Positions 7,370 to 63,820 are shown, numbered from the stretch's first letter. The stretch: DNA of 64,000 nt from an uncultured Chloroflexia bacterium (GCA_963712745.1 CAVQJC010000005.1:313488-377487), one strand, 5' to 3'. A program made the numbers and translations. The notes: generated by a model not told the origin, from the sequence alone.

Positions 7370-7414
7370 TTCGTAAACAGCAGGTCCTCGGTTCAAATCC
7401 GAGTGTCGGCTCCA
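7370..7414 (+). repeat. tRNA-Thr(CGU) 3'-half att-like repeat, copy 1
   Basis: TTCGTAA ACAGC AGGTC CTCGG TTCAAAT CCGAG TGTCGGC T CCA = anticodon loop, 3' stem, variable loop, T-arm, acceptor 3' strand and CCA; no 5' half upstream. Confidence 0.92.
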
Positions 7415-7495
7415 CTCCCCAAGCGAGAAGCGGCCCGTTTCGGGCTGTCCGTGGGCTCAAGCCGCGGGGCCTGAAACCAGCGATGGATCCCTGAG

Positions 7496-7580
7496 CCCTC
7501 GACTATGCGCGAGAACCTCGATGTCTTCGGATCCGAACTGGCGCCGCCCGATGTCGAGATCACCGAAGCACCAGATCGCG
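7496..7580 (+). pseudogene. C-terminal remnant of an aldo/keto reductase
   Basis: Translates PSTMRENLDVFGSELAPPDVEITEAPDR, resembling the AKR C-terminal 'RENLDVFDFEL' motif; no upstream part. Confidence 0.5.
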
Positions 7581-7629
7581 CGTGCGCAAGAACGGTACTG
7601 ATGGACGTGCATGAACGGTATTAGACAGC

Positions 7630-8886
7630 GTGCGAAAGTGGTATCGTCGCGACGTGACCGAGTATCGCCCACGACTCATCGACGACACGCTCGTGGAGAT
7701 GCTGACAGAGCTTCCGGCGCTCTTCCTCACTGGACCGCGGGCATCGGGAAAGACCACCACGGCGGCACGGCACGCAGCGACGACCGTGCGCCTCGACCGC
7801 AGCGCGGAGGCTGTGGCGTTCCGAGCTGACCCGGATGCCGCACTCCGCGGTCTGGCTGAGCCCGTCCTGCTCGACGAGTGGCAGGTCGTCCCTGATGTCA
7901 TCGGTGCCGTCAAGCGTGCCGTCGATGACGACCCGCGTCCGGGCCGCTTCATCGTGGCCGGCTCCGTTCGAGGCGACTTCCAGGGTGATCTCTGGCCCGG
8001 GACGGGCCGCCTGACCCGCATCCCGCTCTTCGGCATGAGCGTCCGCGAGCAGCTTGGCCTGACGACCTCCGAACCCTTCCTCGACCGTGTCGCATCCGAG
8101 TCGGACCTCCACGGCGCCGCTGACAGTCCGGACCTTCGGGGCTACGTGGAGTTGCTGCTTCGGAGCGGCTTCCCCGAGCCAGCGCTCCGCCTCGGAGCAG
8201 AGGCCAGACGGCGCTGGCTCGAGAGCTACGTGGAGCACCTGCTTGCCCGTGACGCAGAGGAGGTCGATGGAGGCAGAGACCCAGCTCGACTGCGTCGATA
8301 CCTCGAGGCGTACGCACTCAACACGGCTGGGATCGTGCGCGATACCACCTTCCTCGAGGCCGCTGGGATCAACCGCAAGACCGGATCCGCATACGAGCGC
8401 TTGCTTGCCAACCTCCTCGTGGTCGAATCGATGCCGGCATGGACATCGAACCGGCTGAAGCGGCTAGCCCTGTCACCGAAGCGCTACGTCATCGATCCTG
8501 CCATCGCGGCCGCCGTGCTCGGCCTCGATGTCGACCTGGTGATGCGGAATGGCGATCTGCTCGGACGCCTGCTCGACACGTTCGTCCTCGCCCAGCTGCG
8601 AGCTGAGCTCGCTGTCACGGATGCTCGGCCGCGCCTGTATCACGTACGCCAACGAGAGGGACGGCTCGAGATCGATCTCCTTGCTGAGTTGGCCGGGGGT
8701 CGGCTTGTCGCCGTCGAAGTCAAGGCTGACGCCTCTCCAGGACCTGCTAGTGCGCGTCATCTCGCTGCGCTCCGGGATCGTCACCAGGAGAGGTTCGTGA
8801 CAGGTGTCGTACTTCATACCGGTCCGCGAACATACATGCTCGGCGACCGACTGGTGGCTGCCCCGATCTCTACGCTGTGGGCATGA
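7630..8886 (+). CDS. AAA+ ATPase with C-terminal DUF4143 / PD-(D/E)xK-like domain
   Basis: LTGPRASGKTT, LLDEWQ, PKRYVIDP, EIDLL...VAVEVK. Confidence 0.88.
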   Translation: MRKWYRRDVTEYRPRLIDDTLVEMLTELPALFLTGPRASGKTTTAARHAATTVRLDRSAEAVAFRADPDAALRGLAEPVLLDEWQVVPDVIGAVKRAVDDDPRPGRFIVAGSVRGDFQGDLWPGTGRLTRIPLFGMSVREQLGLTTSEPFLDRVASESDLHGAADSPDLRGYVELLLRSGFPEPALRLGAEARRRWLESYVEHLLARDAEEVDGGRDPARLRRYLEAYALNTAGIVRDTTFLEAAGINRKTGSAYERLLANLLVVESMPAWTSNRLKRLALSPKRYVIDPAIAAAVLGLDVDLVMRNGDLLGRLLDTFVLAQLRAELAVTDARPRLYHVRQREGRLEIDLLAELAGGRLVAVEVKADASPGPASARHLAALRDRHQERFVTGVVLHTGPRTYMLGDRLVAAPISTLWA

Positions 8887-8908
8887 GCGCGGCGGCACAT
8901 CCTCGCGA

Positions 8909-8953
8909 TTCGTAAACAGCAGGTCCTCGGTTCGAATCCGAGTGTCGGCTCCA
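8909..8953 (+). repeat. tRNA-Thr 3'-half att-like repeat, copy 2
   Basis: CCTCGCGA-TTCGTAAACAGCAGGTCCTCGGTTCGAATCCGAGTGTCGGCTCCA; TGACCCCTG x2 at 9012 and 9024. Confidence 0.93.
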
Positions 8954-9122: not shown

Positions 9123-10334
9123 ATGACATGGCTTGAACGGCGCTGGGAAGGCGATCCCAGCGCGGTGGGCGGACGGAGGGCACGCCAGTCGTTCACGTAC
9201 CGCGCGTTCCTGCCCGACCCGATCGCCGCGATCCGACCGGTCGTCAGCTTCGAGACGGCCGATCTCATCACCCGGGCCGAAGCCGCCATCCGCGACCTCA
9301 ACGCCGAGGATCGGGTCCAGGGGCTCGAGGCCATCGGTGCGCTGCTCCTCCGCTCCGAAGCCATCGCCTCCAGCCGGATCGAAGGTATCGAGCTGAGCCA
9401 ACGGAACCTGGCTCGAGCCCTCATCGACCCGCGTGCGAGCAAGGGCAGCGCGCGCGCTGTGGCCGCGAACGTGCTGGCCATGGAGGAGGCCATCGAAGAT
9501 GCCTCGGTCGGCGCCGATCTGACCGTGGCGAGCATCGAGGCGATCCACCGCACCCTCATGGCCGATGAGCCCGAGCGAGTCATGGGGGGCCGGTTCCGCG
9601 CCGAGCAGAACTGGATCGGTGGTCGTCGCAGCAACCCGTCGGATGCCCGCTACATCCCGCCGCCCGAGGACCAGGTGCCCGCGCTCATGGGCGATCTGGT
9701 CGACTTCATCAACCGTGATGACCTGCCGGCCGTGGCGCAGGCGGCCATCGCCCACGCGCAGTTCGAGACGATCCACCCGTTCGTCGATGGCAATGGCCGG
9801 GTGGGACGCTGCCTGATCCATGTCGTCCTGCGGCGCAGGGACGTCGCGCGGTCGTTCGTTCCGCCCGTGTCGATCGTGCTCGCTGCCAGGCCGGAGGAGT
9901 ATGTCTCCGGCCTGGTCGACTTCCGCGAGGGCAGGCTCGAGTCGTGGTGCGCTGCCTTCGCCGAAGCGTCTCGATTCGCGGCGGAGTCATCGGCCGGCCT
10001 GGCCGCGCAAGTGGCCGCGCTCCAGTCAGAGTGGCGCGAGCGCGCCGGGCGGCCACGGCGAGACTCGGCTGCGGCCCGCATCATCGGCGTCCTGCCGGCG
10101 CAGCCGGTCGCCTCCGCCGCCACCATCCGCGGTGCCATCGGGGCACGCCATCAGCGAGCACTCGAGGGGCTCAAGGTGCTCGCCGACGCGGGGGTGCTGG
10201 GGCAGATCAGCGCCGGGACCTACGACCGCCAGTACGCGGCGGATGAGCTGTTCGAGCTGATCGAGGTCTACGAAGCCGAGGTGGCTGATCGCACCCGACG
10301 TGCCGAGAGCCCGGCAGATACCTCTAGTTCATAG
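9123..10334 (+). CDS. Fic family protein
   Basis: Canonical HPFVDGNGRVGR; N-terminal EAIASSRIEG inhibitory-type motif. Confidence 0.92.
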   Translation: MTWLERRWEGDPSAVGGRRARQSFTYRAFLPDPIAAIRPVVSFETADLITRAEAAIRDLNAEDRVQGLEAIGALLLRSEAIASSRIEGIELSQRNLARALIDPRASKGSARAVAANVLAMEEAIEDASVGADLTVASIEAIHRTLMADEPERVMGGRFRAEQNWIGGRRSNPSDARYIPPPEDQVPALMGDLVDFINRDDLPAVAQAAIAHAQFETIHPFVDGNGRVGRCLIHVVLRRRDVARSFVPPVSIVLAARPEEYVSGLVDFREGRLESWCAAFAEASRFAAESSAGLAAQVAALQSEWRERAGRPRRDSAAARIIGVLPAQPVASAATIRGAIGARHQRALEGLKVLADAGVLGQISAGTYDRQYAADELFELIEVYEAEVADRTRRAESPADTSSS

Positions 10335-10371
10335 ACCGCAGGTCCTCGTCCACGTCCGAGTGTCGGCTCGC
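10328..10371 (+). repeat. Degenerate tRNA-Thr 3'-half repeat, copy 3
   Basis: TTCATAGACCGCAGGTCCTCGTCCACGTCCGAGTGTCGGCTC followed by the conserved CCCCACGCGTGA...GGGCTG. Confidence 0.8.
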
Positions 10372-10522: not shown

Positions 10523-11218
10523 ATGTGCCTTCCAGCAGGTGGCCGTCCGGGTGAGGCTCAGCAGCAGCGAACGGAGAAAAGCGAACCCTTTCGCTCGCTG
10601 AACCGTCGAGTGGGCATGCAGGATCGTCATCGCACCTTGACTGCCCCGCAGACGATGTGGGCAAGGAGGGTGGCTCAGGAACGTGAAGCCTTGACTCACA
10701 AGCCCGATGCCGACGAGCGGGCACGCGTGTTCCGCGAGCTGGCGGAAGACTCACTTCGGGATGCGTACCGGCTCGCTGGGGCGATCCTCCGCGACCCGGT
10801 AGAAGCCGAGGACGCCACCCATGACGCCTTCGTCACTGGTTGGCAGAAGTGGTCGACGCTGCGGGACGTCACCAAGTTCGAGGCCTGGTTCAGGCGCATC
10901 GTCGTGAACGTCTGCCGGGAACGGCTTCGGAGTAGGAGACGTCGTCCCTCCGCTGGGCTCGACGAGTCTGCGAGCGTCTCGGCTCCGATGCCTGACCTCG
11001 ATGTCCACGACCATCTCCTGCTGGAGCAAGGCATGACTCGGCTCGACGTGGACGACCGCCTCATCCTGGGCCTGCGCTACTACCGCGACCTGACGGTGGA
11101 GGACGTGGCGCGTGCCCTGGACGTGCCCACCGGGACCGTCAAGTCTCGCCTGTCGCGTGCACGAGATCGCTTGCGGGCCGAGCTAGAGGCGTCCGCGCGA
11201 AACGGGGGTGCCAGATGA
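10523..11218 (+). CDS. ECF (sigma-70 group 4) sigma factor; true start probably ~10655-10691
   Basis: AEDATHDAF...FEAWFRRIVVNVCR region 2; LDVPTGTVKSRLSRAR region 4. Confidence 0.9.
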   Translation: MCLPAGGRPGEAQQQRTEKSEPFRSLNRRVGMQDRHRTLTAPQTMWARRVAQEREALTHKPDADERARVFRELAEDSLRDAYRLAGAILRDPVEAEDATHDAFVTGWQKWSTLRDVTKFEAWFRRIVVNVCRERLRSRRRRPSAGLDESASVSAPMPDLDVHDHLLLEQGMTRLDVDDRLILGLRYYRDLTVEDVARALDVPTGTVKSRLSRARDRLRAELEASARNGGAR

Positions 11219-13008
11219 TCAACGACAACCAGCTCGACGCTGCGCTCCAATCATTCCATCGCGATCCCGTGACACACGGCGATCTGGAGGGCGTGGTCCA
11301 TCGCATTCTCGCGACCCCCATCGAGGAGACGCCTCGGACGCGAGACCTCCTGCTGCAGTCCGCCACGTGGAGGCTCCAGTCCAAGTTCAGTGCGACCAAG
11401 TTCGTCGTCGCCGGTGCCATCGTGGCGCTGTTCGGAGGATTCCTGCTGGCAGGGATGCTGACCCAGCAGCCGAATGATGACCGACTTCCAGCCGTCGGCG
11501 CGTCAGCATCAGCGACGGCCGAGTCCTCGTCGATGGAGTCGCCGATCGACGAGCGATCCACCCTCCAGCCCGACTACGGGCCGTTCCTGCCCGCCGTCCT
11601 GCCCGAGGGCACCGACTGGGGCGGGTCCGGGAGCGGCGTCCCGAACGGCCAGTCGCGCTGGGTTCACATCGCGGGCAATCCCGAGACTCTCCCCTTCATG
11701 GAGCAGGTCCTGCCGGGCCCGGACGGTCCGCTCCTCTTCGACACAGGCGGTGGAGCCCACCCGTGCTCGACGGTCCCCGAGCGCATCCGCGCCTCGGACC
11801 CTGCCGGAGGCTACTGCCGAAACAGCCCTGACCTGTGGCGCTCGGCCGACGCGCTCACTTGGGAGCCCCTGACGCTCCCGGTGAAGGCGCAACTGGCCTC
11901 ACTGACGCTGCTCGACGCTACGTACTGGTTGGCGACCAACGATCCGACCGAGTTGTGGCGATCGAACGATGCCGAGCAGTGGGAGCCGGTCGACCTCTCT
12001 GCACTTGGGCCCACGGGTCCAGCGTCGCTCGAGTGGGAGGTGGAGCTGGGCATGCCCGTGACCTCGAACGGGCGGACCGTGGTACCGGTCGTCTACCGGG
12101 CCGTGGACGCTGGCCGACTCCTTGGCCTTCAGGAGGCCGACCTGCAGGGCAAGCGTGGAGGAGGCGGCCTCCAGTGGACCTGGCCCGAGCCGACCGAGAC
12201 TGCAGGCCGCTACGACGTCATGGCGGAGTATCAGGCCGGGGTCGAAGACGAGGGTGAGGTGCTGATCAGGGAGGACCCTTCAGGGCTGGTCTTCACACGG
12301 CTCGATGGTTCGTTCGTCGCAAGGCTCGACGGGGTCGACCTCGGCTTCGTGGAGACATGGTCCGCCAACCACCAGATCGCCGAACCCGGTATGGCCGTGG
12401 TAGACGAAGCGGCGGTCGTACCGGCGTCCGTGGCAGGGGTCATCCCCCCAGCGGGGCCGTGGAGGGCCGGGCCTCCCGCCGTTCTCGCCACTCTCGATGG
12501 ATTCCGTGCTCATCTGCTGGACGATCGCGACGGGACGATCGCGACGTGGCACTCGGGCGACGGCACGATGTGGACCCCAAGGGACGCCGTCAGCTTCGAC
12601 GGGCCGGTCGAGTTCCTGGGAGGCGATGGCGGCGTGCAGGGACCGCGACTCTTCGCCGGTGGGGAAGGGTTCGACACGCTGTGGTTCACGGAGGACGGCA
12701 TCACTTGGGAGCCCCGAGCCATACCTGGCATACACCTCCCGTGGGGCCCAGCCGACATCCTGTTCCGGAACGACCGCAACACGCTCGAGATCTCCGTCGC
12801 GGACACGACCGGCCAGATGGGAGAACCGGGTGAGTGGTACCCGCTGGTAATCCCTGGGCTGACGTGGGCTCCCGAGGCCGAAGAACCGGCCGGTTCTCGG
12901 GTCGCCACCCTCGGTGACACGATCTTCGTGTGGATCGGCTACCGCGATGGGCTCATCGACCGCCACCTGTGGGTCATCGAACGCTGGGAGCCGACCGATG
13001 ACGACTAG
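11215..13008 (+). CDS. Putative anti-sigma factor: short cytoplasmic N-terminus, one TM helix, large extracellular domain with Asp-box-like repeats
   Basis: Overlaps the ECF stop; TM FVVAGAIVALFGGFLLAGML; WRSADALTW, WRSNDAEQW, WHSGDGTMW, WFTEDGITW repeats. Confidence 0.65.
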   Translation: MINDNQLDAALQSFHRDPVTHGDLEGVVHRILATPIEETPRTRDLLLQSATWRLQSKFSATKFVVAGAIVALFGGFLLAGMLTQQPNDDRLPAVGASASATAESSSMESPIDERSTLQPDYGPFLPAVLPEGTDWGGSGSGVPNGQSRWVHIAGNPETLPFMEQVLPGPDGPLLFDTGGGAHPCSTVPERIRASDPAGGYCRNSPDLWRSADALTWEPLTLPVKAQLASLTLLDATYWLATNDPTELWRSNDAEQWEPVDLSALGPTGPASLEWEVELGMPVTSNGRTVVPVVYRAVDAGRLLGLQEADLQGKRGGGGLQWTWPEPTETAGRYDVMAEYQAGVEDEGEVLIREDPSGLVFTRLDGSFVARLDGVDLGFVETWSANHQIAEPGMAVVDEAAVVPASVAGVIPPAGPWRAGPPAVLATLDGFRAHLLDDRDGTIATWHSGDGTMWTPRDAVSFDGPVEFLGGDGGVQGPRLFAGGEGFDTLWFTEDGITWEPRAIPGIHLPWGPADILFRNDRNTLEISVADTTGQMGEPGEWYPLVIPGLTWAPEAEEPAGSRVATLGDTIFVWIGYRDGLIDRHLWVIERWEPTDDD

Positions 13009-13098
13009 TCGGACCAGCGGGTCCACCAGGACCAGCCGGCAATGGGCGCCAAGGCCAGGATCGAACGCGTCCACCAGTGGGGGGAGAGGGAGGTCCCC

Positions 13099-13677
13099 GT
13101 GAGGGGTACGAAGCCCAGTCTCGACGTCATCCTCGTCATCGGCTTGGTGGCAGGTTCAGCCGTGGGGGTCACGGCACAGGATGAAGCGGATGATGCGGTG
13201 GCCACAGAGGCGGAGGCGATGCTTCCGGCGATGGTGACCGGCACCATCAACCACCACTACGAAGCCGGCGAACAGACGGGTCGTGTCGAGACCAACGACC
13301 ATCGTCTGAACGGTGACGTAACGTCCGACGGGACCTTCGAGAACTTCCCGGACGTCATGCTCCCCGAGGAGCCGGACCTCGATGCCGACATGGCCAGCCA
13401 CTACGAGGCAGGTGGTGCCGAGCTTGCCTGGGGGTCCCTGCGGATCGCGAACGAGGATGGTTCGTGGGATGGCCACCTGGTCTGCACTCCGACACTGCAC
13501 ACGAACGGGTTCGAGGACCCGTGCTTCATCGAGCTCTCCGGGGCGGGTGCCTACGACGGACTCTCGGCTCTCCTGGTCCAGCGGGACAGGCTCTCAGCCC
13601 TCGGCTACGAGCCCCGCGATGAAACGTACGTGCTGGACGGGCTCGTCTTCCTGGGGGACCTGCCGCCCGATAGGTAG
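13099..13677 (+). CDS. Secreted hypothetical protein
   Basis: Signal peptide ILVIGLVAGSAVGVTAQ after a GGAGG RBS; acidic composition; LSGAGAYDGLSA motif. Confidence 0.6.
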   Translation: MRGTKPSLDVILVIGLVAGSAVGVTAQDEADDAVATEAEAMLPAMVTGTINHHYEAGEQTGRVETNDHRLNGDVTSDGTFENFPDVMLPEEPDLDADMASHYEAGGAELAWGSLRIANEDGSWDGHLVCTPTLHTNGFEDPCFIELSGAGAYDGLSALLVQRDRLSALGYEPRDETYVLDGLVFLGDLPPDR

Positions 13678-13938: not shown

Positions 13939-13983
13939 TTCGTAGACAGCAGGTCCTCGGTTCAAATCCGAGTGTCGGCTCCA
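13939..13983 (+). repeat. tRNA-Thr 3'-half att-like repeat, copy 4
   Basis: 1 mismatch to consensus; GAAACGG-G-CCGTTTC palindrome downstream; TGACCCCT x2 at 14041 and 14053. Confidence 0.93.
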
Positions 13984-14385: not shown

Positions 14386-14949
14386 TCACGAAGGCGGGCT
14401 CTCGGCCAAGTCGGGCGAAGGTTCCGGATAGATGAGTTCGGGCGCATCGCGCTGGGATGGCGCCTGGACGATCTCGACGAGGCAGCCGATGTCGTCGCCG
14501 TGCTCGTAGTAGGCGAACTTGCCGTCACGCGAACGACCGAAGCCATCGCCCGTCTGTACCGCGACCCACCCGTCGTCAGCCATGCCGGCGGCGGCTTCGT
14601 CGAAGTCGGGGACGTAGAAGTTGAAGTGATGGAGGGCGGCGCCCACATGGTCTAGGTACTCATGCCAGATGCTCGGGCCTTCCAGCGGCTGGATGATCTC
14701 CATGGTCAACGAGCCCGACATCGCCAAGCCATAGCGGATCTTGAACTGTGACGGCCGGCCCCGGTAGGTCACGCCCCGAAGGTGAGGGCCGCCGACCGTG
14801 TAGACACTCCATGGCCCGATACCCAACAGCTCCCAGTAGCCGCGGATCGATGCGTCCACGTCGGGTACGACCAGGGCGAGCTGGCCCACCGGAACCCCGA
14901 ACCGCGAGCCGCCTGGAAGCGGCGCGTGCAACCACTCGGTTCTCGACAC
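14386..14949 (-). CDS. VOC/glyoxalase family protein (methylmalonyl-CoA epimerase-like)
   Basis: QLALVVPDVD...LGIGPW...EIIQPLEGPSIWHEYL...LHH. Confidence 0.85.
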   Translation of the reverse strand: MSRTEWLHAPLPGGSRFGVPVGQLALVVPDVDASIRGYWELLGIGPWSVYTVGGPHLRGVTYRGRPSQFKIRYGLAMSGSLTMEIIQPLEGPSIWHEYLDHVGAALHHFNFYVPDFDEAAAGMADDGWVAVQTGDGFGRSRDGKFAYYEHGDDIGCLVEIVQAPSQRDAPELIYPEPSPDLAESPPS

Positions 14950-14990
14950 TCCTTGACACCCCTTTCCACCTGCGACACTATCTGCCGTAC

Positions 14991-15004
14991 TGTAACGTTG
15001 TTAC
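14991..15004. promoter_or_regulatory. Palindromic operator GTAAC-N3-GTTAC, copy A
   Basis: TGTAACGTTGTTAC in the divergent VOC/SDR intergenic region. Confidence 0.7.
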
Positions 15005-15039
15005 GGTGCACGATCCATCTCCATGAGTCGAGGTCACCA

Positions 15040-15795: not shown

Positions 15796-15912
15796 AGGGC
15801 GTGGCTGCACCCCGTCATGGCCTCGTTCGTCACACACTGCTGCACATCGGATGGTGGGTGAGCAAGATCCGATGACCGCCCACATCCCGGATGACCGCCT
15901 TGGGGGGACGCG

Positions 15913-16566: not shown

Positions 16567-16570
16567 CGAT

Positions 16571-17608: not shown

Positions 17609-17669
17609 CGACGGCCTGTTCCACCACTCGATGGCAGGGCACGACCGCATGGCGGCCTTGTCATGCACC

Positions 17670-17683
17670 TGTAACGCTGTTAC
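17670..17683. promoter_or_regulatory. Palindromic operator GTAAC-N3-GTTAC, copy B
   Basis: TGTAACGCTGTTAC about 40 nt upstream of the epimerase gene. Confidence 0.7.
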
Positions 17684-54363: not shown

Positions 54364-54395
54364 ACCGCATCGACGATCAGCGCGGGATCCTGCCT

Positions 54396-57383
54396 ATGAT
54401 CGTGCCCATGGCTGCGAGGATCACCAGCGCGGAGCTGGTCGGGAGGACCGAAGCGCTCGAGCAGCTGCTCGCGCCGCTGACCGACCCCGCTGTTGCTCAG
54501 GCTCGGCACGTCGTCGTTACCGGCGAGGCAGGGGTCGGCAAGTCTCGCCTCCTCGTACGCGCTGGTGAGGTGGCCAAGGAAGCGGGTGTCAGCGTCCTGG
54601 CGGGCGGCTGCGTGAGCATGGGCGATGCCGTGCTGCCGTTCGCGCCATACGCCGAGGTGATACGCGATCTCGTGGCCCAGGACGGTTCGGTCCAGGCAGC
54701 CGGCATGGCGGGCTGGGGGGCACGCGACCTTGCACGGCTGGTCCCGGCGCTGGGCGGATCCGAGGGTCCGGAGGAGGCGGACTCGGTGGGCCAGCTGCGC
54801 TTGTTCGAGGCCCTTCTCGACCTGCTTCGACGGGTCGCATCGCGAGGACCACTGATGGTGCAGCTCGAGGACATGCACTGGGCCGATGCCGGCACGCTGG
54901 CCGCGACATCGTTCCTGTTCAGGTCGATCCGTGACGAGCCCGTCAGCATCGTGTGCACGGTCCGCGCCGACGAGATCGGTGGCCACCAGGAGCTCAGACG
55001 GTGGCTCGTCGAATCCAGCCGATCCGAGCGTGTCCGGCGTCTCGAGCTCGAACCTCTCGACGCAGACGAGTCAAAGGAGCTGGTTCGCAACATCACCGGG
55101 AACGACCTCGCCCCGACCGCGCTCGAAGACATCCATCGACGATCGGACGGCAACCCCTACTACATCGAGGAGTTGCTGGCCTCGGGCGCTGCCGGAGACC
55201 GCTACCTGCCCACGTCGCTTCGCGAGGTGCTGCTCGCGCGCGTGGACGGGCTCGACGGTCGATCACAACGGTTGCTTGCCGTCGCAGCGGTCGGTGGACG
55301 CGAGGTTGATCACGGTGTCCTGCTCGCGGTCGATGGCCGCTCGCAGCGAGATATCACCGATGACCTGGAGCGGCTCGTGCAAGTGGGGCTACTGACGCCG
55401 GTATCGACGTCCTCGCGCGATGGCTACGCGTTCCGCCACGCCTTGCTCCAGGAGGCAGTACTGGGATCGATGATCCCGTCGGAGCGGCGGCGCCTGCATG
55501 GTGAGTACGCGGCCGTACTCGAGGCGCGCGGCGATACCGCCTCCAGGGATGTCCAGCTCCTGGTCGGCCTGGCCCACCACTGGCGGGAGGCTCGAAGCGA
55601 CCGAGCGCTGCGTGGATCGATCCAGGCAGGCGATGCGGCGATGGATGCATATGCGTTCGCCACGGCGGGCGTCGAATTCGACCACGCCCTGGAGCTGTGG
55701 GACGACGCGGCGGGCGCGCGACCGGACGATCTCGATCGGGTGGACCTCCTGGTTCGATCGTCGCTCGCGGCATGGTACGCAGGCGAACACCGACGGGCAG
55801 TCGCCCACGCGCGCGAGGCGTTGGGGGAGCTGGACGACGAGGCATCCCGCCGCACCGAAATCGGGGTCCTGTTGGCACGAACGCTGTTCAACTCGGGAGA
55901 CTGGAGCGGTGCGGTCGAGGTCTTCGAACAAGCGCTGGAAGCGGCGCCGCCGCCGCCAGACCTGGCGCGGATCAAGGCCCTCGCAGGCCTCGGCCAGGGA
56001 TACATGCTCCTGGGCTGGCTGGCCAGGTCTCGCCCGCTCTGCGAGGAAGCCATCGCCCTGGCTCGCCACATAGGAGCGCGAGACCTGGAGGGGCACGCCC
56101 TGGACACGCTGTCGATCTGCCTGGCAGGTCTGGGCGAGATCGACCCGGCCATCGAAGCCATCGACTCGGCGCTGGCGATCGCCGAAGAGCTCAGTCTCCC
56201 CGAAGAGATCGGTCGGGCGCTCATCAACCGCACGGACGTGCTCGACTGGGCCGGTCGCACACGTGAGGCGCTCGAGAGGGTTCACGAAGGCGTCAGCGTG
56301 ACGGCGAGCCTGGGCCTGGAGTCCAGCATCGGCGTACTGCTTCGATACAACGGCGTCCGCTGTGCGTACCTGGTGGGGGAATGGGGCGAAGCCGCCGACC
56401 TGCTCGCTGAAGCTGACCGGCTTGCCAGCCCGGACATCGGCACCGAGGCCTATCGAGCCGAGTACGCGTTGAACTACCTGGTCAGCGTCGGAGCGCCGGA
56501 GGCCACGACGACCTGGAACCGGGCCCGCCAGATGCGCTCGGAGCACCCCCCCACAGTGACCTCGACGACGCCATACGCAGCGGCCATCGAGGCCGCCTGC
56601 TACGAGGAACGCTATGACGAGGCGGTCGAGATCGGCGAGGAGTGCCTGGAGCTCCTGCAACAGATCGATGGCCAGTGGCGACTGCATGAGGTCGGACTCG
56701 CCATGGCCTGGCCCCTCGCCGAGCTCGGGCGTGCGGCGAAGGCCTTGAAGGCAATGGACCGATGGCATTCGACGCGTGCCCGCCTCGACAGCCTGATCAA
56801 GACGATGCGGCAGACGCGCGACGGGTACGCCGAGCCGACAGGGCCGTTACGGCAGGTCCTGCTGGCCTATGACGCTCACGTCGAAACGGAGCGGCGCAGG
56901 CTGGATGGCACCGATACTGCCGAGGAGTGGCAGGCGGTCGCCGTGAGGTGGCAGGATGTCGAGCGACCACTCTTCGAAGCGTACGCCCAGTGGCGCGCGA
57001 GCCAGGCAGCCGATGCTGCGGGCCAGCACGAGATGGCCGAGAGGGCGCTGCGGAGATCACACAAGATCGCACACGGCCTCGGTGCACGACCCCTATTGGA
57101 CTTGCTTGACCGGACCGCTCGCAAGCTGCGGATCCGGCTGGGAACGGACCACGGGCCGACCGGCTCGGCAGACGCGCAGTCGCCGTATGGCCTCACGCGA
57201 CGAGAGCAGGAAGTGCTGCAGCTGGTGGCCACAGGCCGGACCAACGCCCAGATCGGCGAGGCGCTGTTCATCAGTCCATCGACGGCCGGAGTCCACGTGT
57301 CCAACATTCTCTCGAAGCTGGGTGTGTCGACCCGGACCGAGGCAGCCAGCGTGGCGGTGCGCGACGGCCTTGCACGCCCCTGA
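54396..57383 (+). CDS. Large ATP-binding LuxR-family regulator (AAA + TPR + LuxR HTH)
   Basis: GEAGVGKS, LEDMHWAD, GNPYYIEE, FRHAL; LTRREQEVL..GRTNAQIGEALFIS..HVSNILSKLGV. Confidence 0.92.
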   Translation: MIVPMAARITSAELVGRTEALEQLLAPLTDPAVAQARHVVVTGEAGVGKSRLLVRAGEVAKEAGVSVLAGGCVSMGDAVLPFAPYAEVIRDLVAQDGSVQAAGMAGWGARDLARLVPALGGSEGPEEADSVGQLRLFEALLDLLRRVASRGPLMVQLEDMHWADAGTLAATSFLFRSIRDEPVSIVCTVRADEIGGHQELRRWLVESSRSERVRRLELEPLDADESKELVRNITGNDLAPTALEDIHRRSDGNPYYIEELLASGAAGDRYLPTSLREVLLARVDGLDGRSQRLLAVAAVGGREVDHGVLLAVDGRSQRDITDDLERLVQVGLLTPVSTSSRDGYAFRHALLQEAVLGSMIPSERRRLHGEYAAVLEARGDTASRDVQLLVGLAHHWREARSDRALRGSIQAGDAAMDAYAFATAGVEFDHALELWDDAAGARPDDLDRVDLLVRSSLAAWYAGEHRRAVAHAREALGELDDEASRRTEIGVLLARTLFNSGDWSGAVEVFEQALEAAPPPPDLARIKALAGLGQGYMLLGWLARSRPLCEEAIALARHIGARDLEGHALDTLSICLAGLGEIDPAIEAIDSALAIAEELSLPEEIGRALINRTDVLDWAGRTREALERVHEGVSVTASLGLESSIGVLLRYNGVRCAYLVGEWGEAADLLAEADRLASPDIGTEAYRAEYALNYLVSVGAPEATTTWNRARQMRSEHPPTVTSTTPYAAAIEAACYEERYDEAVEIGEECLELLQQIDGQWRLHEVGLAMAWPLAELGRAAKALKAMDRWHSTRARLDSLIKTMRQTRDGYAEPTGPLRQVLLAYDAHVETERRRLDGTDTAEEWQAVAVRWQDVERPLFEAYAQWRASQAADAAGQHEMAERALRRSHKIAHGLGARPLLDLLDRTARKLRIRLGTDHGPTGSADAQSPYGLTRREQEVLQLVATGRTNAQIGEALFISPSTAGVHVSNILSKLGVSTRTEAASVAVRDGLARP

Positions 57384-57421
57384 TCGCACGCCGGCGCCGT
57401 CAACCTAGGCCCGGAGGGCCA

Positions 57422-58324
57422 TCACTTGACTGCCCCTGCCGTCATTCCGCAAATCAGGTACCGCTGGAAGGCGAAAGCGAGGATGAGAGGCGGAAGACTC
57501 GCTACAACGCCAGCGGCAGCGATCTTCAGGTGCTCAAGACCAAGCTTGGTGCTGAACTCGCCGATAAGCACCGGCAGGGTCTTCGCCTCCACGTTGGTCA
57601 GGGTGAACGCGTACAGGTACTCATTCCACGCCACCACGAAGGCGAACACCGCGACCGTGATGACTCCTGGTATGGCGAGCGGCAGCGTCACGCGCAAGAG
57701 TGCACCCAGGCGAGACGCACCGTCGATCATGGCGGCTTCTTCGAGCTCACGCGGGATCGTCGCGAAGTAGCTCCGCAACATCCAGATGGCCAGAGGGAGG
57801 ATCAGGGTCATGTACACGAGCACGATGCCCAGCTGCGTATCGAGAAGATCCAACTGGCGGAGAATCACGTACATCGGGATGACGATCGCGATCGGCGGGA
57901 CCATCTGGACGCTCATCGCGCCGAACAGGTACTGCTTCCGGCCGGGAAACCTGACCCGGGCGACTGCGTACGCAGCGAATACGCCGAGGCCCAAGGCGAG
58001 AGCCGTGGTGCCCGAGGCGATGATCGCTGAGTTCCGCAGCGAGGAAAGGAAGAGCGACGTGTTCGACGATCCCCCCCCGGTCGAGGCGAAGAGGTCGCGG
58101 TAGTTGTCAAGCGTGAGCCGATCAGGAATGAGCTTCGTCGGGATCTCGAGCAGATCGGCCTTGTAGGAGAGGGACGAGATCACCATCCAGGCATACGGCG
58201 CAAGCGTCCAAACCATGATCAGAACGACCGCCGTGTACAAGCCGAACCTGCTGAGCCGGTGACGCCAAACCACCTTCCTCGGCTTGTGCGCGGTCGTCGC
58301 CCTCGCTGACGGGCTGCTGGGCAC
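57422..58324 (-). CDS. Carbohydrate ABC permease (MalG-like)
   Basis: IPRELEEAAMIDGAS, AWNEYLYA. Confidence 0.9.
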   Translation of the reverse strand: MPSSPSARATTAHKPRKVVWRHRLSRFGLYTAVVLIMVWTLAPYAWMVISSLSYKADLLEIPTKLIPDRLTLDNYRDLFASTGGGSSNTSLFLSSLRNSAIIASGTTALALGLGVFAAYAVARVRFPGRKQYLFGAMSVQMVPPIAIVIPMYVILRQLDLLDTQLGIVLVYMTLILPLAIWMLRSYFATIPRELEEAAMIDGASRLGALLRVTLPLAIPGVITVAVFAFVVAWNEYLYAFTLTNVEAKTLPVLIGEFSTKLGLEHLKIAAAGVVASLPPLILAFAFQRYLICGMTAGAVK

Positions 58325-58326
58325 CT

Positions 58327-59229
58327 CTACATCTCCACGATCGACTTGTGGGCCTTGCGGATATAGATGACCGCCGGCACGAGGAGCAGGAGCGCAACGG
58401 AGTAGGCCATGGCAGCACCGAGGCCGAACCGCAGCGACCTGAACGTCGTCGAGTAGATCCGAAGGGACACGAGCTCGGTCGAGCTCTGCGGTCCGCCTCC
58501 GGTGATGATCTGCGGGATCTCGAAGGTCTGGAACCCCCAGATCAGCTGGAGCAGACCGGCAACGATCAGGATGGGCAGGATGAGTGGGAACGTGACGTAG
58601 CGGAACCGCTGCCATGCCGATGCTCCGTCGATGTGTGCCGCCTCATAGGGCGCAGTCGGAATCGCCATCAGGGCCCCAAGGAGCAACAAGACGGTGAGGG
58701 GCGTCTCCTTCCAGACATTGGCCAGGATGATGAGGCCCATGGCCCAGTTCGGATCAGCCAGCCACACCTGGTACTCGTCTATCAGGCCCAGCTGAAGCAG
58801 GACGGCGTTCAGTGCGCCGAAATCAGCGTTGTAGATCCACTTCCACATCGATGCCGCGACTACCGCCGGCAAGGCCCAGGGAAGGATGATGATGGCACGT
58901 GCCAGTCCACGACCCCTGAAGGCCTGGGTCAGGACGAGGGCGAATGCGATGGCGAGTGGGAGCTCGATCGCGATCGATGTCAGTGAGAAGACAGTCGTGG
59001 CTTTGAGCGAATTGAGAAACCGCTCATCGGTCGCCAGCCGGATGTAGTTGTCGAGCCCAACGAAGGCATCGTTCTGCGGTCTCGCGAGGTCCCGCTGCTG
59101 GAAGCTCAGGATCAGAGCGTTGACGAGCGGGAGAAGAACGACGGCGAAGATGGCGATGAGCGCTGGGGTGGCAAGGGCGAGACCGAATCGGCGCTCTGCG
59201 GAGGAGTCGCGACCGCCACCTGCACTCAA
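58327..59229 (-). CDS. Carbohydrate ABC permease (MalF-like)
   Basis: FVGLDNY, YEAAHIDGASAWQRF, TGGGP. Confidence 0.9.
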   Translation of the reverse strand: MSAGGGRDSSAERRFGLALATPALIAIFAVVLLPLVNALILSFQQRDLARPQNDAFVGLDNYIRLATDERFLNSLKATTVFSLTSIAIELPLAIAFALVLTQAFRGRGLARAIIILPWALPAVVAASMWKWIYNADFGALNAVLLQLGLIDEYQVWLADPNWAMGLIILANVWKETPLTVLLLLGALMAIPTAPYEAAHIDGASAWQRFRYVTFPLILPILIVAGLLQLIWGFQTFEIPQIITGGGPQSSTELVSLRIYSTTFRSLRFGLGAAMAYSVALLLLVPAVIYIRKAHKSIVEM

Positions 59230-59280
59230 TCTCTCACCTACCTCCCAGCCCTCCCGAACTCACACCACCATCGCGACAAA

Positions 59281-59309
59281 GGGCCACCGTTGACATCCAA
59301 CGGTGGCCC
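59281..59309 (-). terminator. Strong hairpin after the SBP gene (terminator or mRNA stabiliser)
   Basis: GGGCCACCGTTG-ACATC-CAACGGTGGCCC 12-bp stem followed by TTTG on the minus strand. Confidence 0.7.
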
Positions 59310-59355
59310 GCGTACCGGTCCTGAGAACGATTACTCCGGTCTACTTCTGCGTCGG

Positions 59356-60648
59356 TTATTGGACGCAGTTGAACTCGTCAAGACCAGAGGCGATCGCGTC
59401 GAGAGCCTCCTGGGCCGTCTGCCCTCCACCGAGTGCCTTGTGGATCTCGGCTGTGCTGATGTCGACGAGGTCGGCGTACCAGGTCAGGGTCGAAAGGCCG
59501 CGAACCGATCCGAGCTGGCTCGAGAAGGCCTCCCATTCTGGGTACTGCGCCACCAGGTCGGGGTCCGTGTACAGGTCGACCCAGATCGGAAGCATGCCGA
59601 TCTGCTCGGCCATGAACCGGTTCGTCTCCTCACTCGTCATGTACTCGATGAACTTCCAGGCAGCCTCCTTGTGCTCGGAGTTGGCCGGGATGGCGAACCC
59701 TTCAGGAAGCGTCAGCGAGGGCGCACCCGCGGGGACAGTCCCGATCGCCAGCTCTCCCTGGATCGACGAGAGGGCGTCGTCTTCGGCGAACGCCACGAGG
59801 CCTGGAATGCCCTGGGGCATGAACAGAGACCGTCCAGCAAGGAACACATCCTGGGATGCAGCCTGGTCGAATGTGAGGCCGGCCGGATCGGCGACTCCGT
59901 TGGCCAGGGAGTCGATCATGTACTGCAGGCCCTCGAGGGTCTTCGGATCGTCCTGAGCGACGATGCACGATGCGTCGTCCACGATCTCGCCGCCGAATGC
60001 ATATGTCCAGAAGTGGAACTCGTTGCCGAGGGACCACTCCTGGTTCCAGAACGGTGCAAGACCATGCTCGACGACCCCGGCAGCGGCCGCCGCTTGACTC
60101 TGTTCGGTGAACTCCGCCCAATCCTGCGGGGGAGTGTCGAAGCCAGCTTCGGCAAGCTTGGCCTCGTTGTAGAAGAAGAACCTTGTGTCGTTGTTCCAGA
60201 CGAGACCGGTGATGGAACCATCAGGACAGGTGAACAGGTCTACCAGTCCCTGGATCATCCCGTCGGTATAACCAGCTGGCATGAAGTCGTTGAGTGGGGT
60301 GGCCCAACCGGCACCGCACCACTGCGCGACCCAGCCGTTGTCGAACTCGACGACGTCATAGGCGCTACCGCCCGTCGCGAGCTCAGGCACGACCTTGTCG
60401 GCTACTGAGTCCCAGTCGCTCTGAATGAGATTCACCGAGATCCCGGTCTCTTCCTGGAACTGGTTGATGCGAGCCTCGAAGGCGGTACCCATGTCCGCCT
60501 CGTGGGCCGGGAAGATGACGGTGATCTCCTCAGACGCATCCTGCGCCACCGCCGTCGTCGCGCCGAACGCAGCGACGGTCAGGGACAGCGCCAGCGCCCC
60601 GAGTACCGATCCCCGTCCTGGATGCCTGGTGAGTGCTTGATCGCTCAA
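59356..60648 (-). CDS. Sugar ABC substrate-binding protein
   Basis: Signal peptide ...ATTAVAQD; FYNEAKLAEAGF..PP.DW; AWKFIEYM; TTG start after GAGGAG. Confidence 0.88.
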   Translation of the reverse strand: MSDQALTRHPGRGSVLGALALSLTVAAFGATTAVAQDASEEITVIFPAHEADMGTAFEARINQFQEETGISVNLIQSDWDSVADKVVPELATGGSAYDVVEFDNGWVAQWCGAGWATPLNDFMPAGYTDGMIQGLVDLFTCPDGSITGLVWNNDTRFFFYNEAKLAEAGFDTPPQDWAEFTEQSQAAAAAGVVEHGLAPFWNQEWSLGNEFHFWTYAFGGEIVDDASCIVAQDDPKTLEGLQYMIDSLANGVADPAGLTFDQAASQDVFLAGRSLFMPQGIPGLVAFAEDDALSSIQGELAIGTVPAGAPSLTLPEGFAIPANSEHKEAAWKFIEYMTSEETNRFMAEQIGMLPIWVDLYTDPDLVAQYPEWEAFSSQLGSVRGLSTLTWYADLVDISTAEIHKALGGGQTAQEALDAIASGLDEFNCVQ

Positions 60649-61044
60649 GGTGAACTCCTCTCGTTGTCGTCCTTGTCGGCGACTTGCAGACCCCAATGAG
60701 AATGACCGAGTTTGCGCGTTATCACAACTGGTCTGTTGTCTCCTGTGCACTGCTCCCGGGCGTGCGACGCATCGGCTGGGCAGGCCTCGGTGGCAGCAGA
60801 TGGACGGAGTGCCGGCGGACATGCCCGGTCGATCGGCTGTCTGTCTGCCCGGATCCGAGCGCGGACGCCATCATCGGCGGACGTCAACGGACGCTATGAG
60901 GCTGATTCGTGAGGGACGGCGCGACGACGCTGCTGGCCCAGCGCTACTCGGCGGAGCAGGACGAGGCATTCGTGGCAGGGATGAGGGCGCGGTTTGGGCC
61001 ATAGCCCAACGCCCCCGATATCATCAACGCGATACGTGCCATCG

Positions 61045-61205
61045 GCATATCCGAGGCCCTTCAAGTGGTCGGCGACAGTCTTCGCCGTAGCGGATTCTCA
61101 ATTCGGAAGCTCCGGATGCTGATGGATGTGCCGGAACCAGCCAGTCACTTGCCGCGCAACGTCATCCGACTGCCTGTTGATCTCGTCCCGGGTATCACCA
61201 GCCAC
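61045..61205 (-). pseudogene. N-terminal remnant of an M20 amidohydrolase
   Basis: GAGGAG RBS, then VAGDTRDEINRQSDDVARQVTGWFRHIHQHPELPN*ESATAKTVADHLKGLG (HxHPEL motif, internal TGA); remainder absent. Confidence 0.7.
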
Positions 61206-61410
61206 GTTCGATCCCTCCTCGTGAGCGCGGGCGTGCTCGGCACGAGACACTGCGCGACAGCCTACGCCTGCTCGGGCCTCCTCATCGCTTCTCTGGCACG
61301 GTCATCCCGATGTGATGCTCGGCCGGCAGCCTGCTAGCGCTCGGATAGCCAGACGATGACGGTTGGGCCGTCCGAGGGTCGCGATCCAGGGGCCCCGGTC
61401 GGGCTCGTCC

Positions 61411-61770
61411 CTACAGCTTGCCCACGACGTGGGCGAGTACTTGCGACATCTGGTCGTGGGGGCTGAACTCCACCATCCTGACCGCTTCCTCGACCACGAT
61501 GGTGTGGCCTGAGGGCCAGTAGTAGATCTCGCCTGCGCTCACGACCTCTTCGGTGCCGTCCTCGTAGTACACGCGGATGCGGCCCTCGATGACGAACCCC
61601 CAGTGCGGACACTGGCAATGGTCTCCCTCGAGACCTTCGAGCATGGGCCGGAAATCCAGGCCGGCCGGGTACTGCATGTACGCAGTGGTCATCCCACCCC
61701 AGTCCTGCCCACGGATCATCTCTCCGAGGGCTTGATGAGCGATCGGGAGGTCCTTGACGTTGCTCTTCAT
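61411..61770 (-). CDS. Cupin-domain protein
   Basis: CQCPHWGFVIEG...AGEIYYWPSGH...EFSP. Confidence 0.8.
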   Translation of the reverse strand: MKSNVKDLPIAHQALGEMIRGQDWGGMTTAYMQYPAGLDFRPMLEGLEGDHCQCPHWGFVIEGRIRVYYEDGTEEVVSAGEIYYWPSGHTIVVEEAVRMVEFSPHDQMSQVLAHVVGKL

Positions 61771-62056
61771 GTCCGCTGTCTCCTCGTGGCTGACTGGAAC
61801 AGGTCCGCCACCTCACGCCGGATCGGCCACGCCGGGCGGCATGGGACAGCGCCGAGGCCCGGCGGACCCCGAGTATCGAGCATGGCGGGTACAGGCCGCT
61901 GGGGGTGTCGCCAACCCGACGCGAGGGCAGTCGGATGTTCGTCAGCCCAGAGGGATGCGACCGGCGCGTGATACGAGGGATGGTCGCAGTACAGGCGCCG
62001 TGCTGCTCACCCGCGTGGTAGGTGACCAACGAGTTCGCCCGACAGGGGCTCGGCGA

Positions 62057-63497
62057 TCAGGATGGGGGGTCGTGCGGGAGTGCGAGGCGTCCCATCCGGA
62101 ACGTGGCATAGGGGCCGGGGAAGAGCAAGTTGGAGACACGGGACGTGTAGATGTCGGCATAGCGCTCGATCTGGCGAAAGAACAGGCTCTTGTCTTGTTT
62201 GGCCCGCGTCAGCGTCCCCCACCCCTGGTTCTGCAGTCGACTTGCTTCATCTTTCAAGGGGGCCATGAGCTCGTTGAGCTGGGACAGTTCGGCCTCTGTC
62301 TCGGCTATCGACGCGAGGTGGCCTTCGTTGGGCCCCAGCGGATCGGCATGGCCTTCGGCGGCTCGGAGTTGGGCGAGTCGTTGGGCGCCTAGCTGAGCTT
62401 CGAGTCTCTGGCGGTGGTCGATGAGCTCACTCAGACGAGCCTGGGTCGGCTTGAACTCGGCAAGAGCGCGGATCTCCGCCTCGAGTTCCTGAAGGATCAG
62501 AGCTGTTCTCCAGCGACGCAGAGCTTTGGAGTAGTGGACGTCGCCGTAGAGGTGGTCGCCCACATAGAGGATCTCGTCGCCGATGAGTCCAAGGCTCTCC
62601 TCCAGAAGCTGTGCGTTGCCGCCGTAGAACACACCGCCACTGCCCAGGGGGCCGAAGTGGGGTTCGAGCAGACCCCGCTCTTCGTCCACGACCCGGTATA
62701 GCGGGTTCGACGAGGTGAAGAACCCCGGCTTGGCTGATGAGACGACCACGATCTCGAACAGGTCGCGCCACTTGTCGCCGCCTCTCAGGAAGGGGTCGAA
62801 TGTGTGGGTCATGATCTTGTTCGTGTAGCTCCACTCGGAGTTCGTGATGAGCATGAGGAGCTTTCCTGACACTCTCTGGTCAAGGAGACTCGCCACGATG
62901 TCCCCATCCAGGGAGATGAATCGTCCAGGGTCCGCCAAGACGCCCTTCTTGAGCGTTCCGTCCCGATGGATCCAGATCGACCGCGTCCACTACCGCGGCA
63001 AACATGTCTCGATACCCCATGCCGCCGGGAAGCCTCCCAGCGTCGAGAAGCTCTACGCCTTGGGCGAACAGGCTCGCTTCTGAGAGCGAGAACAAGGAAT
63101 TGAGCAGGACGTAGCGGTCCTCTGACAGGTCGATGTGAGTTCCCAGATAGGTGCTTCGAACCTCGTCGTGGTCCAGGAACCGACTGCCGTGTTTTGCCCT
63201 GACGACCCAGCCGAAGCGAGTTGCCTTGACGAGGTTCCCGAGGTCTTGATCGACCACGAGCCCTCGGGCTGTCGAGGTGGCATCGAATGAGAGGGCCCCG
63301 ACTGGCCAACCGAGTTCGGCGAGGAGACTGCTGGCGTGGGAGAAGGCGAACTCCTCGAAGGCCTCCGCCTTGTACTGCGTGAGGGTGTAGTCCATGTCGT
63401 AGCCGACCGCACGTATCGACTTCATCTTCAAGGTGCGATTGGCGAAGACCCGACGTTCGGGAGCGGGTTCGGGAAACTGTCTGTCACTGGCCGTCAT
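62057..63497 (-). CDS. HAD-IG family 5'-nucleotidase (cN-II-like), frameshifted near 62950-62985
   Basis: VFANRTL..GYDMDYTL; LITNS.WSYT; AKPGFF; YVGDHLYGD; RYADIYTSRVSN. Confidence 0.9.
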
Positions 63498-63775
63498 CGT
63501 CGAAGGGTAGCGCTTGGCACATGCCTTCCTGGAAGCCACTTCAGGCGGCCGGCGACCGCGGGGTAGCCGTCAAGGGCCCACGCTACGTTGATGTCGCGGG
63601 CAAGGGTCGGGTCAACGACTACTGGTCAGTTCCGCTCGCTCCAGGCGTAGTGCGCTGGTGGTCGGGGACACGGAAGAGGCGGTCGGGGAAGGACGCGAAG
63701 ATCCCGCCCATCCAACGCACATGTTCCCCGCGCCCCGCGGCCACGGGTGGGGGTCGAGCGGCCATGTCCTCTACA

Positions 63776-63820
63776 TTCGTCAACAGCAGGTCCTCGGGGC
63801 AGATCCGAGTGTTGCCTCCA
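63776..63820 (+). repeat. Degenerate tRNA-Thr 3'-half repeat, copy 10, lacking the conserved downstream flank
   Basis: TTCGTCAACAGCAGGTCCTCGGGGCAGATCCGAGTGTTGCCTCCA, followed by unrelated TTCTCACTGC. Confidence 0.85.

Follow-up and report, generated by a model that had tools for sequence, protein, structure and literature searches.

Tandem tRNA-Thr(CGU) half copies delimit an array of integrase-less modules in an uncultured Chloroflexota genome

The DNA studied here is a stretch of 64,000 nucleotides (nt; hereafter the window) from an uncultured Chloroflexia bacterium, in which copies of the 3' half of a tRNA-Thr(CGU) gene separate blocks of unrelated genes. The window corresponds to positions 313488-377487 of contig C5 of the source genome G000, a Limnocylindria-like Chloroflexota metagenome-assembled genome (MAG; completeness 84.55%, estimated contamination 5.03%), and its right edge is the end of the contig. 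The locus is probably a tandem array of elements integrated at the 3' half of tRNA-Thr(CGU), with many integrase-less cassettes that extend from one 45-nt core to the next. This reading is built on the array and its anchor, on the anatomy of the putative attachment (att) sites, on the lack of recombinase genes in the array and on the polarity of core decay; furthermore the same att anatomy was found around integrase-bearing elements, and integrase-less core-bounded cassettes were found in other species.

The intact tRNA-Thr (anticodon CGT) at which the array is anchored was located by ARAGORN on the + strand at C5:295866-295940. It precedes the window by 17.5 kb, and an initial annotation made from the window sequence alone had predicted it there. 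No tRNA was reported by ARAGORN inside the window, and there was no match in it to Rfam at gathering scores. The annotation had also counted ten copies of the tRNA 3' half in the window, all on the + strand; the count was right, but four of them are clearly decayed. In array order the cores occupy positions 7370..7414 (0 differences from the tRNA half among the 45 positions), 8909..8953 (1 difference), 10328..10368 (8 differences with small deletions, a degenerate copy), 13939..13983 (1), 30397..30441 (0), 33140..33184 (1), 34979..35023 (3) and, in decayed form, 39933..39977 (6), 48756..48800 (5) and 63776..63820 (6), the last one standing 180 nt from the contig end. With the 45-nt consensus as query and at most 3 mismatches six window matches were obtained (0 expected, from 100 shuffles), while the 25-nt 3' core gave eight; the copy at 63776 was added by the repeat-family search (families D3/D4), and the degenerate copy at 10328 was recovered by alignment and BLAST (81% identity). 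The measured spacings agree with the module sizes given in the initial annotation.

Two more copies stand between the tRNA and the window, at C5:304677 and C5:309567, and the whole array consists of the tRNA and 12 fragments (13 copies) over 81.6 kb, reaching the contig end. All 12 downstream copies, each corresponding to the 3' 45 nt, lie on the same strand as the tRNA, and the identity between the tRNA and the copies begins at the anticodon loop. A scattering of copies over the genome in both orientations, which the annotation had named, if without a link to an intact tRNA-Thr, among the outcomes that would contradict it, was not seen: only four further copies were found in G000 (three on C2, one on C9), all of them on the + strand. 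The far end of the array in G000 could not be located, since the sequence downstream of the tRNA differs from species to species. Two additional ARAGORN calls look false: a second tRNA-Thr(cgt) at C1:483790-483861 falls within an apparent coding sequence, and a 'tRNA-Pro(cgg)' in the relative G021 (L012:12830-12913) is composed of a Thr fragment and a chance 5' half.

The number of core differences increases with the rank of the copy counted from the tRNA (Spearman 0.63, p 0.03, n=12). Divergence that rises away from the tRNA fits the entry of new units at the tRNA, and it is the pattern predicted by the serial insertion that had been proposed for this locus. The ordered decay along the contig also bears on the trivial explanation that the array is a chimera, joined by the assembler at the repeats. 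Repeats could mislead the assembly of a MAG, and the short public contigs did not span the junctions; nevertheless the repeats are only 45 to ~400 nt long, and independent assemblies show the same kind of array, partly with the same neighbour order (G021 and G014). Taken together, a chimeric origin is hardly credible.

The junctions are composite units of up to ~400 nt, in which the 45-nt core is accompanied by pairs of TGACCCCTG repeats on both sides. The alignment revealed that the CCA end of the core is directly followed by CTCCCCACGCGTGA, which contains the palindrome CACGCGTG, and beyond it by a short hairpin GCCCGTTTCGGGC, a variable stretch and two TGACCCCTG repeats 12 nt apart (the P' arm). 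Among 84 junctions from G000 and its relatives, representing many species, the P' repeat is situated at +54 to +72 from the CCA in 38 distinct units, and a P-arm repeat of the same orientation at -225 to -185 in 12 units; the typical positions are +57/+69 and about -213/-201. The P-arm pair is preceded by a ACTACCTCTGCTAG box, and immediately before the core most units read TCCTC(G/T)(C/A)(G/C)A. Where a genome has no array, the junction match stops at the CCA, which indicates that the flanks are element DNA and not the surroundings of the tRNA.

In the window, P' pairs were recognized at 9012-9020 and 9024-9032 behind the core at 8909, at 14041-14049 and 14053-14061 behind that at 13939, at 30499-30507 and 30511-30519 behind that at 30397, and at 33243-33251 and 33255-33263 behind that at 33140, whereas the core at 34979 is followed by a single repeat (35081-35089). 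A P-arm pair at 32975..32995 (+ strand), with its repeats at distances of 210 and 198 nt from the CCA end of the core that follows, marks the right end of a cassette with a BTAD regulator gene, the left end of which is the core at 30397. Judged from its sequence, the junction layout is that of attL/attR sites of a tyrosine integrase using core and arm sites: the arm repeats occupy fixed positions on both sides of an attB-shared core, as expected for heterobivalent att sites. The earlier description of the cores as anchored at an intact tRNA-Thr(CGU) and embedded in attP-type composite junctions is in line with these arm repeats.

Two other interpretations of the arms were rejected. The TGACCCCTG pair could have been the start of a gene, but the reading frame closes within a few codons in the G000 units, which makes it a site. 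The P arm could have been the 3' end of a lost integrase, but the arms align at the motifs only and the integrase family PF00589 is not matched on C5, no translated search having been made. A separate observation concerns a high-GC IMG/VR contig (L050, positions 880-1045), in which an integrase is followed by the 3' end of another tRNA and then by a TGACCCCTG pair that forms the first codons of an open reading frame (ORF) of the excisionase-like HTH_17 family; the TGACCCCTG arm code may be shared by integrases aimed at other tRNAs. Six other viral TGACCCCTG matches look like chance or simple repeats.

Genes were called by a GC3/codon-usage score trained on the genome, and Pfam was run on 59 ORFs of the window; for the three modules to the left of it, the recombinase family searches were supplemented by reading the translations by eye. 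The repeats behave as module borders, as had been stated in the initial annotation: no called gene crosses a repeat, although the ORF of a Fic protein ends 7 nt inside the third copy. It was also correct that the modules are functionally unrelated and free of integrase, replication and transfer genes, none of which was found among the 59 scanned ORFs. The tyrosine integrase suspected beside the tRNA, on the other hand, is missing, PF00589 being without a match on the whole 377-kb contig. In the entire genome this family gave four matches: C4 has two Xer-like genes, C12 an integrase and C17 a remnant. Serine recombinase families (PF00239, PF07508) were absent from the array, their matches lying on C1 and, weakly, at C5:8114. 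The integrase on C12 (C12:6674-7891), which is the one full non-Xer integrase in G000, was considered as an enzyme acting in trans and dismissed: it has no homologue in the 48 other genomes of the genus (E <= 1e-10), and no TGACCCCTG repeat was found on C12 either.

These results bear on the idea of an integron-like platform, which in its true form would have an integrase resident by the tRNA and promoterless cassettes read from a common promoter. The five small window cassettes (7630-13677 and 31072-34831) are all oriented in the direction of the tRNA, as such a platform would have them. However, the larger modules are in mixed orientation, there is no recombinase near the tRNA or the array on the contig, the genes upstream of the tRNA are not conserved in relatives, and what is found at the junctions is not attC hairpins but direct repeats derived from the tRNA and accompanied by arm sites. 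The claim of a new integron-like platform in the initial annotation was overstated, given that there is neither a resident integrase nor attC and that arrays at tRNA hotspots have already been described; as an explanation a true platform of this kind is very improbable and already largely refuted.

The same site is used by elements that do carry an integrase. When one genome per species was scanned for the core with the repeat pair, 28 loci were obtained, and in four of them (L058, L059, L077 and L080) the intact tRNA-Thr precedes the repeat pair, behind which a tyrosine integrase is encoded on the opposite strand; its stop codon is ~8 nt from the pair in L080, the only locus read through. Whole elements of 16.8 and 15.7 kb were recognized in G065 and G067, two related Limnocylindria-like Chloroflexota MAGs, with the order of tRNA, repeat pair, integrase, cargo, second repeat pair and distal core fragment. 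The second pair precedes the CCA end of the distal core by ~170 nt and the first base of that core by ~125 nt, and the arm positions in these complete elements are +59/+71 and -170/-158. In G065, on which the cargo scan was performed, an HTH_17/AlpA-like gene comes after the integrase region and a DNA methylase is part of the cargo.

Relatives of the L080-type integrase are present in 29 of the 49 genus genomes, the full-length ones being at most 55% identical; remnants of 70-76% identity were detected in the Thr array of G056 and in a Thr-bounded module of G016. According to Pfam this integrase comprises SAM_3 and catalytic domains only, and its first ~60 residues are unnamed. Moreover, the IMG/VR contig L047 has the same 45-nt half, other arm repeats and, next to the half, an integrase from this broad family, which shows that phage-type elements also use the tRNA-Thr site.

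The comparison with related genomes was extended to 49 species of the genus. The junction unit was matched in 40 of them (a single match being the tRNA itself) and at least three times in 16, including G000, which has the highest number with 15 matches. In 13 arrays of other species of the genus the intact tRNA comes first with the fragments behind it on the same strand, the inverted exceptions being two copies in G016, and nearly all of these arrays are without integrases. Both the set and the order of the cassettes at tRNA-Thr differ among related genomes, and the comparison of order and content suggested in the initial annotation showed that the window cassettes recur in other species in other orders.

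The PDC-S01-type ATPase is 89% identical at the amino acid level to a copy in the G021 array, and the Fic protein has homologues of 82-95% identity in G008, G022, G021 and G014 and of 50% in G051; Fic units lie between cores in these five species and are the first cassette after the tRNA in G008, G022 and G051. The BTAD protein is 97-99% identical in G054 and G013. Its core-to-core unit is 94.4% identical at the nucleotide level to units of G013 and G054. In the comparison with G013, over 2.8 kb, the homology begins at the first base of the left core and stops within 6 nt of the right one, the flanks being unrelated; shared units have nucleotide identities of 94-95%. Identities of 82-89% were found for a Phd/PIN pair in four species, of 95-98% for a 5'-nucleotidase in three species and of 95-99% for sugar-uptake genes in G022, and in G056 the module nearest to the tRNA is colinear with the 16.5-kb metabolic module. 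Overall, identities of 89-99% for the shared cassette proteins stand against 77-86% for a single-gene yardstick, the conserved gene located upstream of the tRNA, in these genomes. Some neighbours have kept their order, namely the PDC-S01 ATPase followed by Fic in G021, and Fic together with the start of the next module in G014. As a further observation, the permease, ATPase and GNAT genes of 40134-44167 are in opposite orientation relative to the cores when compared with G022:C2 (L019:8514-13443); the difference could be due to an inversion between inverted cores or to independent capture.

On this basis the following course of events may be envisaged. A tyrosine integrase would recombine the tRNA (attB) with a circular element, the crossover being at the anticodon loop; the attP of this element would contain the same 45-nt tRNA half together with TGACCCCTG arm pairs and, further out, the ACTACCTCTGCTAG box. 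Each insertion would restore the tRNA and push the older elements outward, and each old junction would be left as a succession of P arm, core and P' arm. The inserting integrases would be of the L080 kind, the units displaced outward would decay, and the well-preserved cassettes would move as non-autonomous units by means of the integrase of a larger element. The movement of integrase-less units from core to core is deduced from the identical limits in three species and from the full arm sites of the best-preserved units, one of which is the BTAD unit (30397-33184): it has the P' and P pairs of the integrase-bearing elements and a single cargo gene, as a cis-mobilizable element (CIME) would have.

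The array might instead be purely a fossil record, in which each module was once an integrase-bearing island that lost its integrase by deletion, and nothing moves any more. Several findings are in agreement with this: integrase remnants accompany Thr cores in the G056 array and in the G016 module, broken integrase pieces were found just before a core in G014, 10 of the 12 G000 modules are without recognizable repeats on one or both sides, and the distal cores are decayed, the same decay being described for Prochlorococcus islands in the part of the report available to us (Hackl et al., bioRxiv 10.1101/2020.12.28.424599). Independent deletions, however, would be an unlikely source of an integrase-less unit that has the same core-to-core limits in three species at 94% nucleotide identity and in different neighbourhoods, as they would not give identical limits; furthermore the Fic units occupy different ranks in five other species. 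We regard this explanation of the whole array as rather unlikely, although it appears to apply to most of the distal modules.

It might also be supposed that no site-specific enzyme has been at work after the first insertions, and that cassettes were exchanged by homologous recombination across cores and arms following the uptake of foreign arrays. Stretches of 45 to ~130 nt are common to the junction units (80-100% identity), the breaks of homology at the cores are just what this process predicts, and the neighbour order retained in G021 (two cassettes) and in G014 (Fic and the next module start) would follow from it. Nevertheless the arm repeats are fixed in distance and orientation across species and match those of the integrase-bearing elements, which points to selection for a protein-binding att site and not to mere homology. 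In addition, a simple exchange does not yield an ABC transporter block that is opposite to the cores in G022 compared with G000. Homologous recombination as the general cause is improbable. We prefer the reading of a tandem array of integrated elements, in which the well-preserved cassettes, at least, would be moved by an integrase supplied in trans or, with less likelihood, by homologous recombination between cores.

Several points weigh against this preferred reading. Homologous recombination at repeats of 45-130 nt gives the same cassette borders, and the core-genome comparison rests on the single flanking gene mentioned above. No homologue of the L080-type integrase was found in G000 at E <= 1e-15, although the absence of a cognate integrase is not proven because the genome is only 84.55% complete. 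In L055 and L067 these repeats are accompanied by other integrase types, and the assignment of the cognate enzyme therefore relies on four of six cases of adjacency. The module next to the tRNA is without the usual P' arm beyond 14 nt, and repeats on both sides can be recognized in only two of the 12 modules (C5:304677-309567 and 30397-33140 of the window), by which most of the array is probably immobile now. Finally, neither excision products nor circles nor empty sites were detected, the scans of reads and contigs being uninformative and not negative.

A search for runs that share part of the window gave 20, all of them estuary and sediment metagenomes, and the contigs of four runs were compared to positions 29500-49400. 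The contigs measured a few hundred bases at ~4x depth, and their listed joints had 20-38 letters on the shorter side, leaving the junctions unspanned. The pattern expected from a circle or tandem of the BTAD cassette (its own P end, core and own P' start) had no match in metagenome contigs, an uninformative outcome, while the general pattern of P arm and core was found in three metagenome contigs. One of these, L085, comprises a complete unit of 5.7 kb from core to core, but it was rejected as a circle since the flank on its left is different from its right arm.

As to the cargo, the window opens with the right part (1..7369) of an 11.3-kb module that starts at C5:309567, in which gene calls and Pfam revealed a sugar-binding protein, an anti-sigma kinase/STAS pair and a MacB-type ABC exporter, besides a sensor phosphatase recognized by eye. 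It is followed by two single-gene cassettes, each with a defence candidate according to PADLOC: an AAA_14/DUF4143 ATPase of PDC-S01 type (7630..8886, +, E 7.7e-100) and the SoFic-type Fic protein (9123..10334, +, E 9.8e-71). A three-gene cassette (10670..13677, +) encodes an ECF sigma factor and two proteins without Pfam match. The 16.5-kb metabolic module (14386..30039) contains genes for 2-keto-3-deoxy-6-phosphogluconate (KDPG) aldolase, a PfkB kinase, CoA-transferases, short-chain dehydrogenases/reductases (SDRs), an aminotransferase and ABC uptake proteins, and ends in a Mutator-family transposase (28837-30039), for which the match covers only positions 29-176 of the 379 of the profile. 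The next units are the single-gene cassette of the BTAD/TPR regulator (31072..32928, +) and one with an HTH_17/AbiEi-like antitoxin gene and two short ORFs (33362..34831, +).

Further from the tRNA, the module at 35300..39878 encodes a DUF5335 protein, a 720-residue protein without Pfam match and the Phd antitoxin/PIN toxin pair (39211-39878), and the following one (40134..48484) GNAT, an oligopeptide-type ABC transporter with genes in fragments, AnmK and a MurQ-like SIS protein. By the predicted functions of its genes the latter is a MurNAc-recycling and peptide-transport module. In its region (40104-45699) public contigs of three to four independent runs show single-base indels relative to the window, e.g. 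at 42602, 45236 and 45699, which coincide with the places where genes for ABC transporters and binding proteins are split. Errors of assembly may account for the 'pseudogenes' of this module, and the same caution concerns 'broken' integrases in other MAGs. The last module (49062..63497) includes a YbaK-like editing domain, Usp, a beta-CASP hydrolase, a LuxR/STAND regulator, sugar ABC uptake genes, a cupin and the 5'-nucleotidase in two ORFs.

The tRNA-Thr locus is not alone in the genome, as it was seen when all 47 tRNAs were compared by BLAST with the genome for half copies. On the same contig (C5:73679-110161) a tRNA-Pro(TGG) on the minus strand has 16 copies of its 5' half (nt 1-39) upstream, forming a denser array over 36 kb with the copies at C5:77057-110161. 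Its units are conserved over ~250 nt with ATCGTGCGGTTCG-type repeats on both sides, and its cassettes are mostly single enzymes: metallo-beta-lactamase-like (MBL) and alpha/beta hydrolases, a PF00144-family protein, methyltransferases, SDR and alcohol dehydrogenase (ADH). There was no recombinase among the 10 ORFs scanned in this array, and the lack of PF00589 matches on C5 holds for it as well. Copies of the tRNA-Val(GAC) 5' half are located at C8:73133-94077, C16:1334 and 15322 and C9:7133, those of the tRNA-Gly(TCC) 3' half at C20:652560-660458, C15:9282 and 18842 and C11:57, and smaller sets belong to the Lys 5' half (C17:368411 and 371049) and the Asn 3' half (C1:128064, 189671 and 198540). 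Several of these sets sit at contig ends; tRNA-anchored arrays are widespread in this genome and probably interrupt its assembly.

Mixed arrangements were also noticed. At C9:7133-7614 a Val 5' half (minus strand) is found ~320 nt from a Thr 3' half with a TGACCCCTG pair (plus strand), which may be a junction between units of two att systems. The three Thr-type cores of C2 (C2:54600-59505) lie inside an apparent tRNA-Arg(GCG) island (C2:55577-65949), delimited by the tRNA at C2:65874-65949 and its 3'-half repeat at 55577-55615. Contigs C1 and C2 carry the same tRNA gene order (Ala-Ile, Ser, Ser, Arg-Ser, Ser), which may reflect a large duplication or the presence of two related strains in the bin.

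The movement of small recombinase-less cassettes in additive islands is poorly understood, and this locus offers a testable case with its defined 45-nt core, conserved arm repeats on two sides and a candidate integrase and excisionase from relatives. Natural integrase-less cassettes (SoFic, PDC-S01 and the BTAD regulator) have crossed species borders as core-to-core units; the pattern is extended to Chloroflexota of sediments and estuaries, in which one genome can hold several arrays, making up together roughly 4% of its length (a rough sum of array spans), and it bears on the flexible genome and on the turnover of defence genes in uncultured lineages. As a tentative proposal going beyond the present case, such cassettes might constitute a class of miniature mobile elements, with one to a few cargo genes in a complete ~400-nt attP, moved by the integrases and excisionases of larger elements. 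Parallel pools would exist at Thr, Pro, Val and Gly tRNAs, each with its own arm code, and with ~50 cassettes per genome they would serve, though lacking a resident integrase, as a reservoir of defence and niche genes similar to that of an integron.

Compared with known systems, the locus is an unusually large and well-preserved instance of the 'additive flexible genomic island' or accretion pattern and requires no new category. In the excerpts available to us, additive islands at tRNA hotspots are described in Alteromonas (PMC4898812), in 'Ca. Actinomarinales' (PMC7771536) and as fGI-2 in Methylophilaceae (PMC10872708), with the tRNA as a hotspot of site-directed recombination and near-identical cassettes across species. 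The intact tRNA at the 5' end of the array, the 12 same-strand copies and the differing cassette sets with near-identical shared members place the present locus among them. It differs in having more repeats per locus (13 Thr, 17 Pro) and many one-gene cassettes and a Chloroflexota host and, as far as those excerpts go, in its conserved junction unit of up to ~400 nt with arm repeats and in its integrase-less units. Among the literature matches listed for genomic islands and integrases of Limnocylindria there was no paper on this lineage.

The tycheposons of Prochlorococcus, according to the portion of the preprint consulted (10.1101/2020.12.28.424599), integrate serially at tRNAs, push older elements inward and leave fragmented integrases and scattered partial tRNAs. 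Both systems involve tyrosine-recombinase elements inserted in tRNA genes and island growth by serial integration, but tycheposons, as characterized there, are defined by their own recombinase and replication modules, neither of which was found in any module of the array. Another parallel is provided by the CIMEs related to ICESt1/ICESt3 of streptococci, which are depicted in the sections seen (PMC5357655) as att-flanked islands without recombination and transfer modules, arranged in tandem and moved by the integrase of a partner. The integrase-less att-flanked units in accretion are common to both; in those sections one or two elements stand beside an integrative and conjugative element (ICE) at the 3' end of a protein gene, whereas here a dozen small cassettes are at a tRNA, with no ICE or integrase for them in the genome as assembled.

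With integrons the array shares the ordered small unrelated cassettes, the apparent insertion at one end and the sharing between species, but there is no resident intI and no attI/attC, the sites being tRNA-derived attL/attR-type composites (no attC model was run), and evidence of a common promoter is lacking, only orientation having been noted. The att architecture itself may be compared with the attP of lambda or L5 type, although here the binding of the arms by the integrase is predicted only; the likeness consists in the attB-shared core, in the direct repeats at fixed distances on both arms and, in the complete element, in the presence of an integrase together with an excisionase-like HTH gene.

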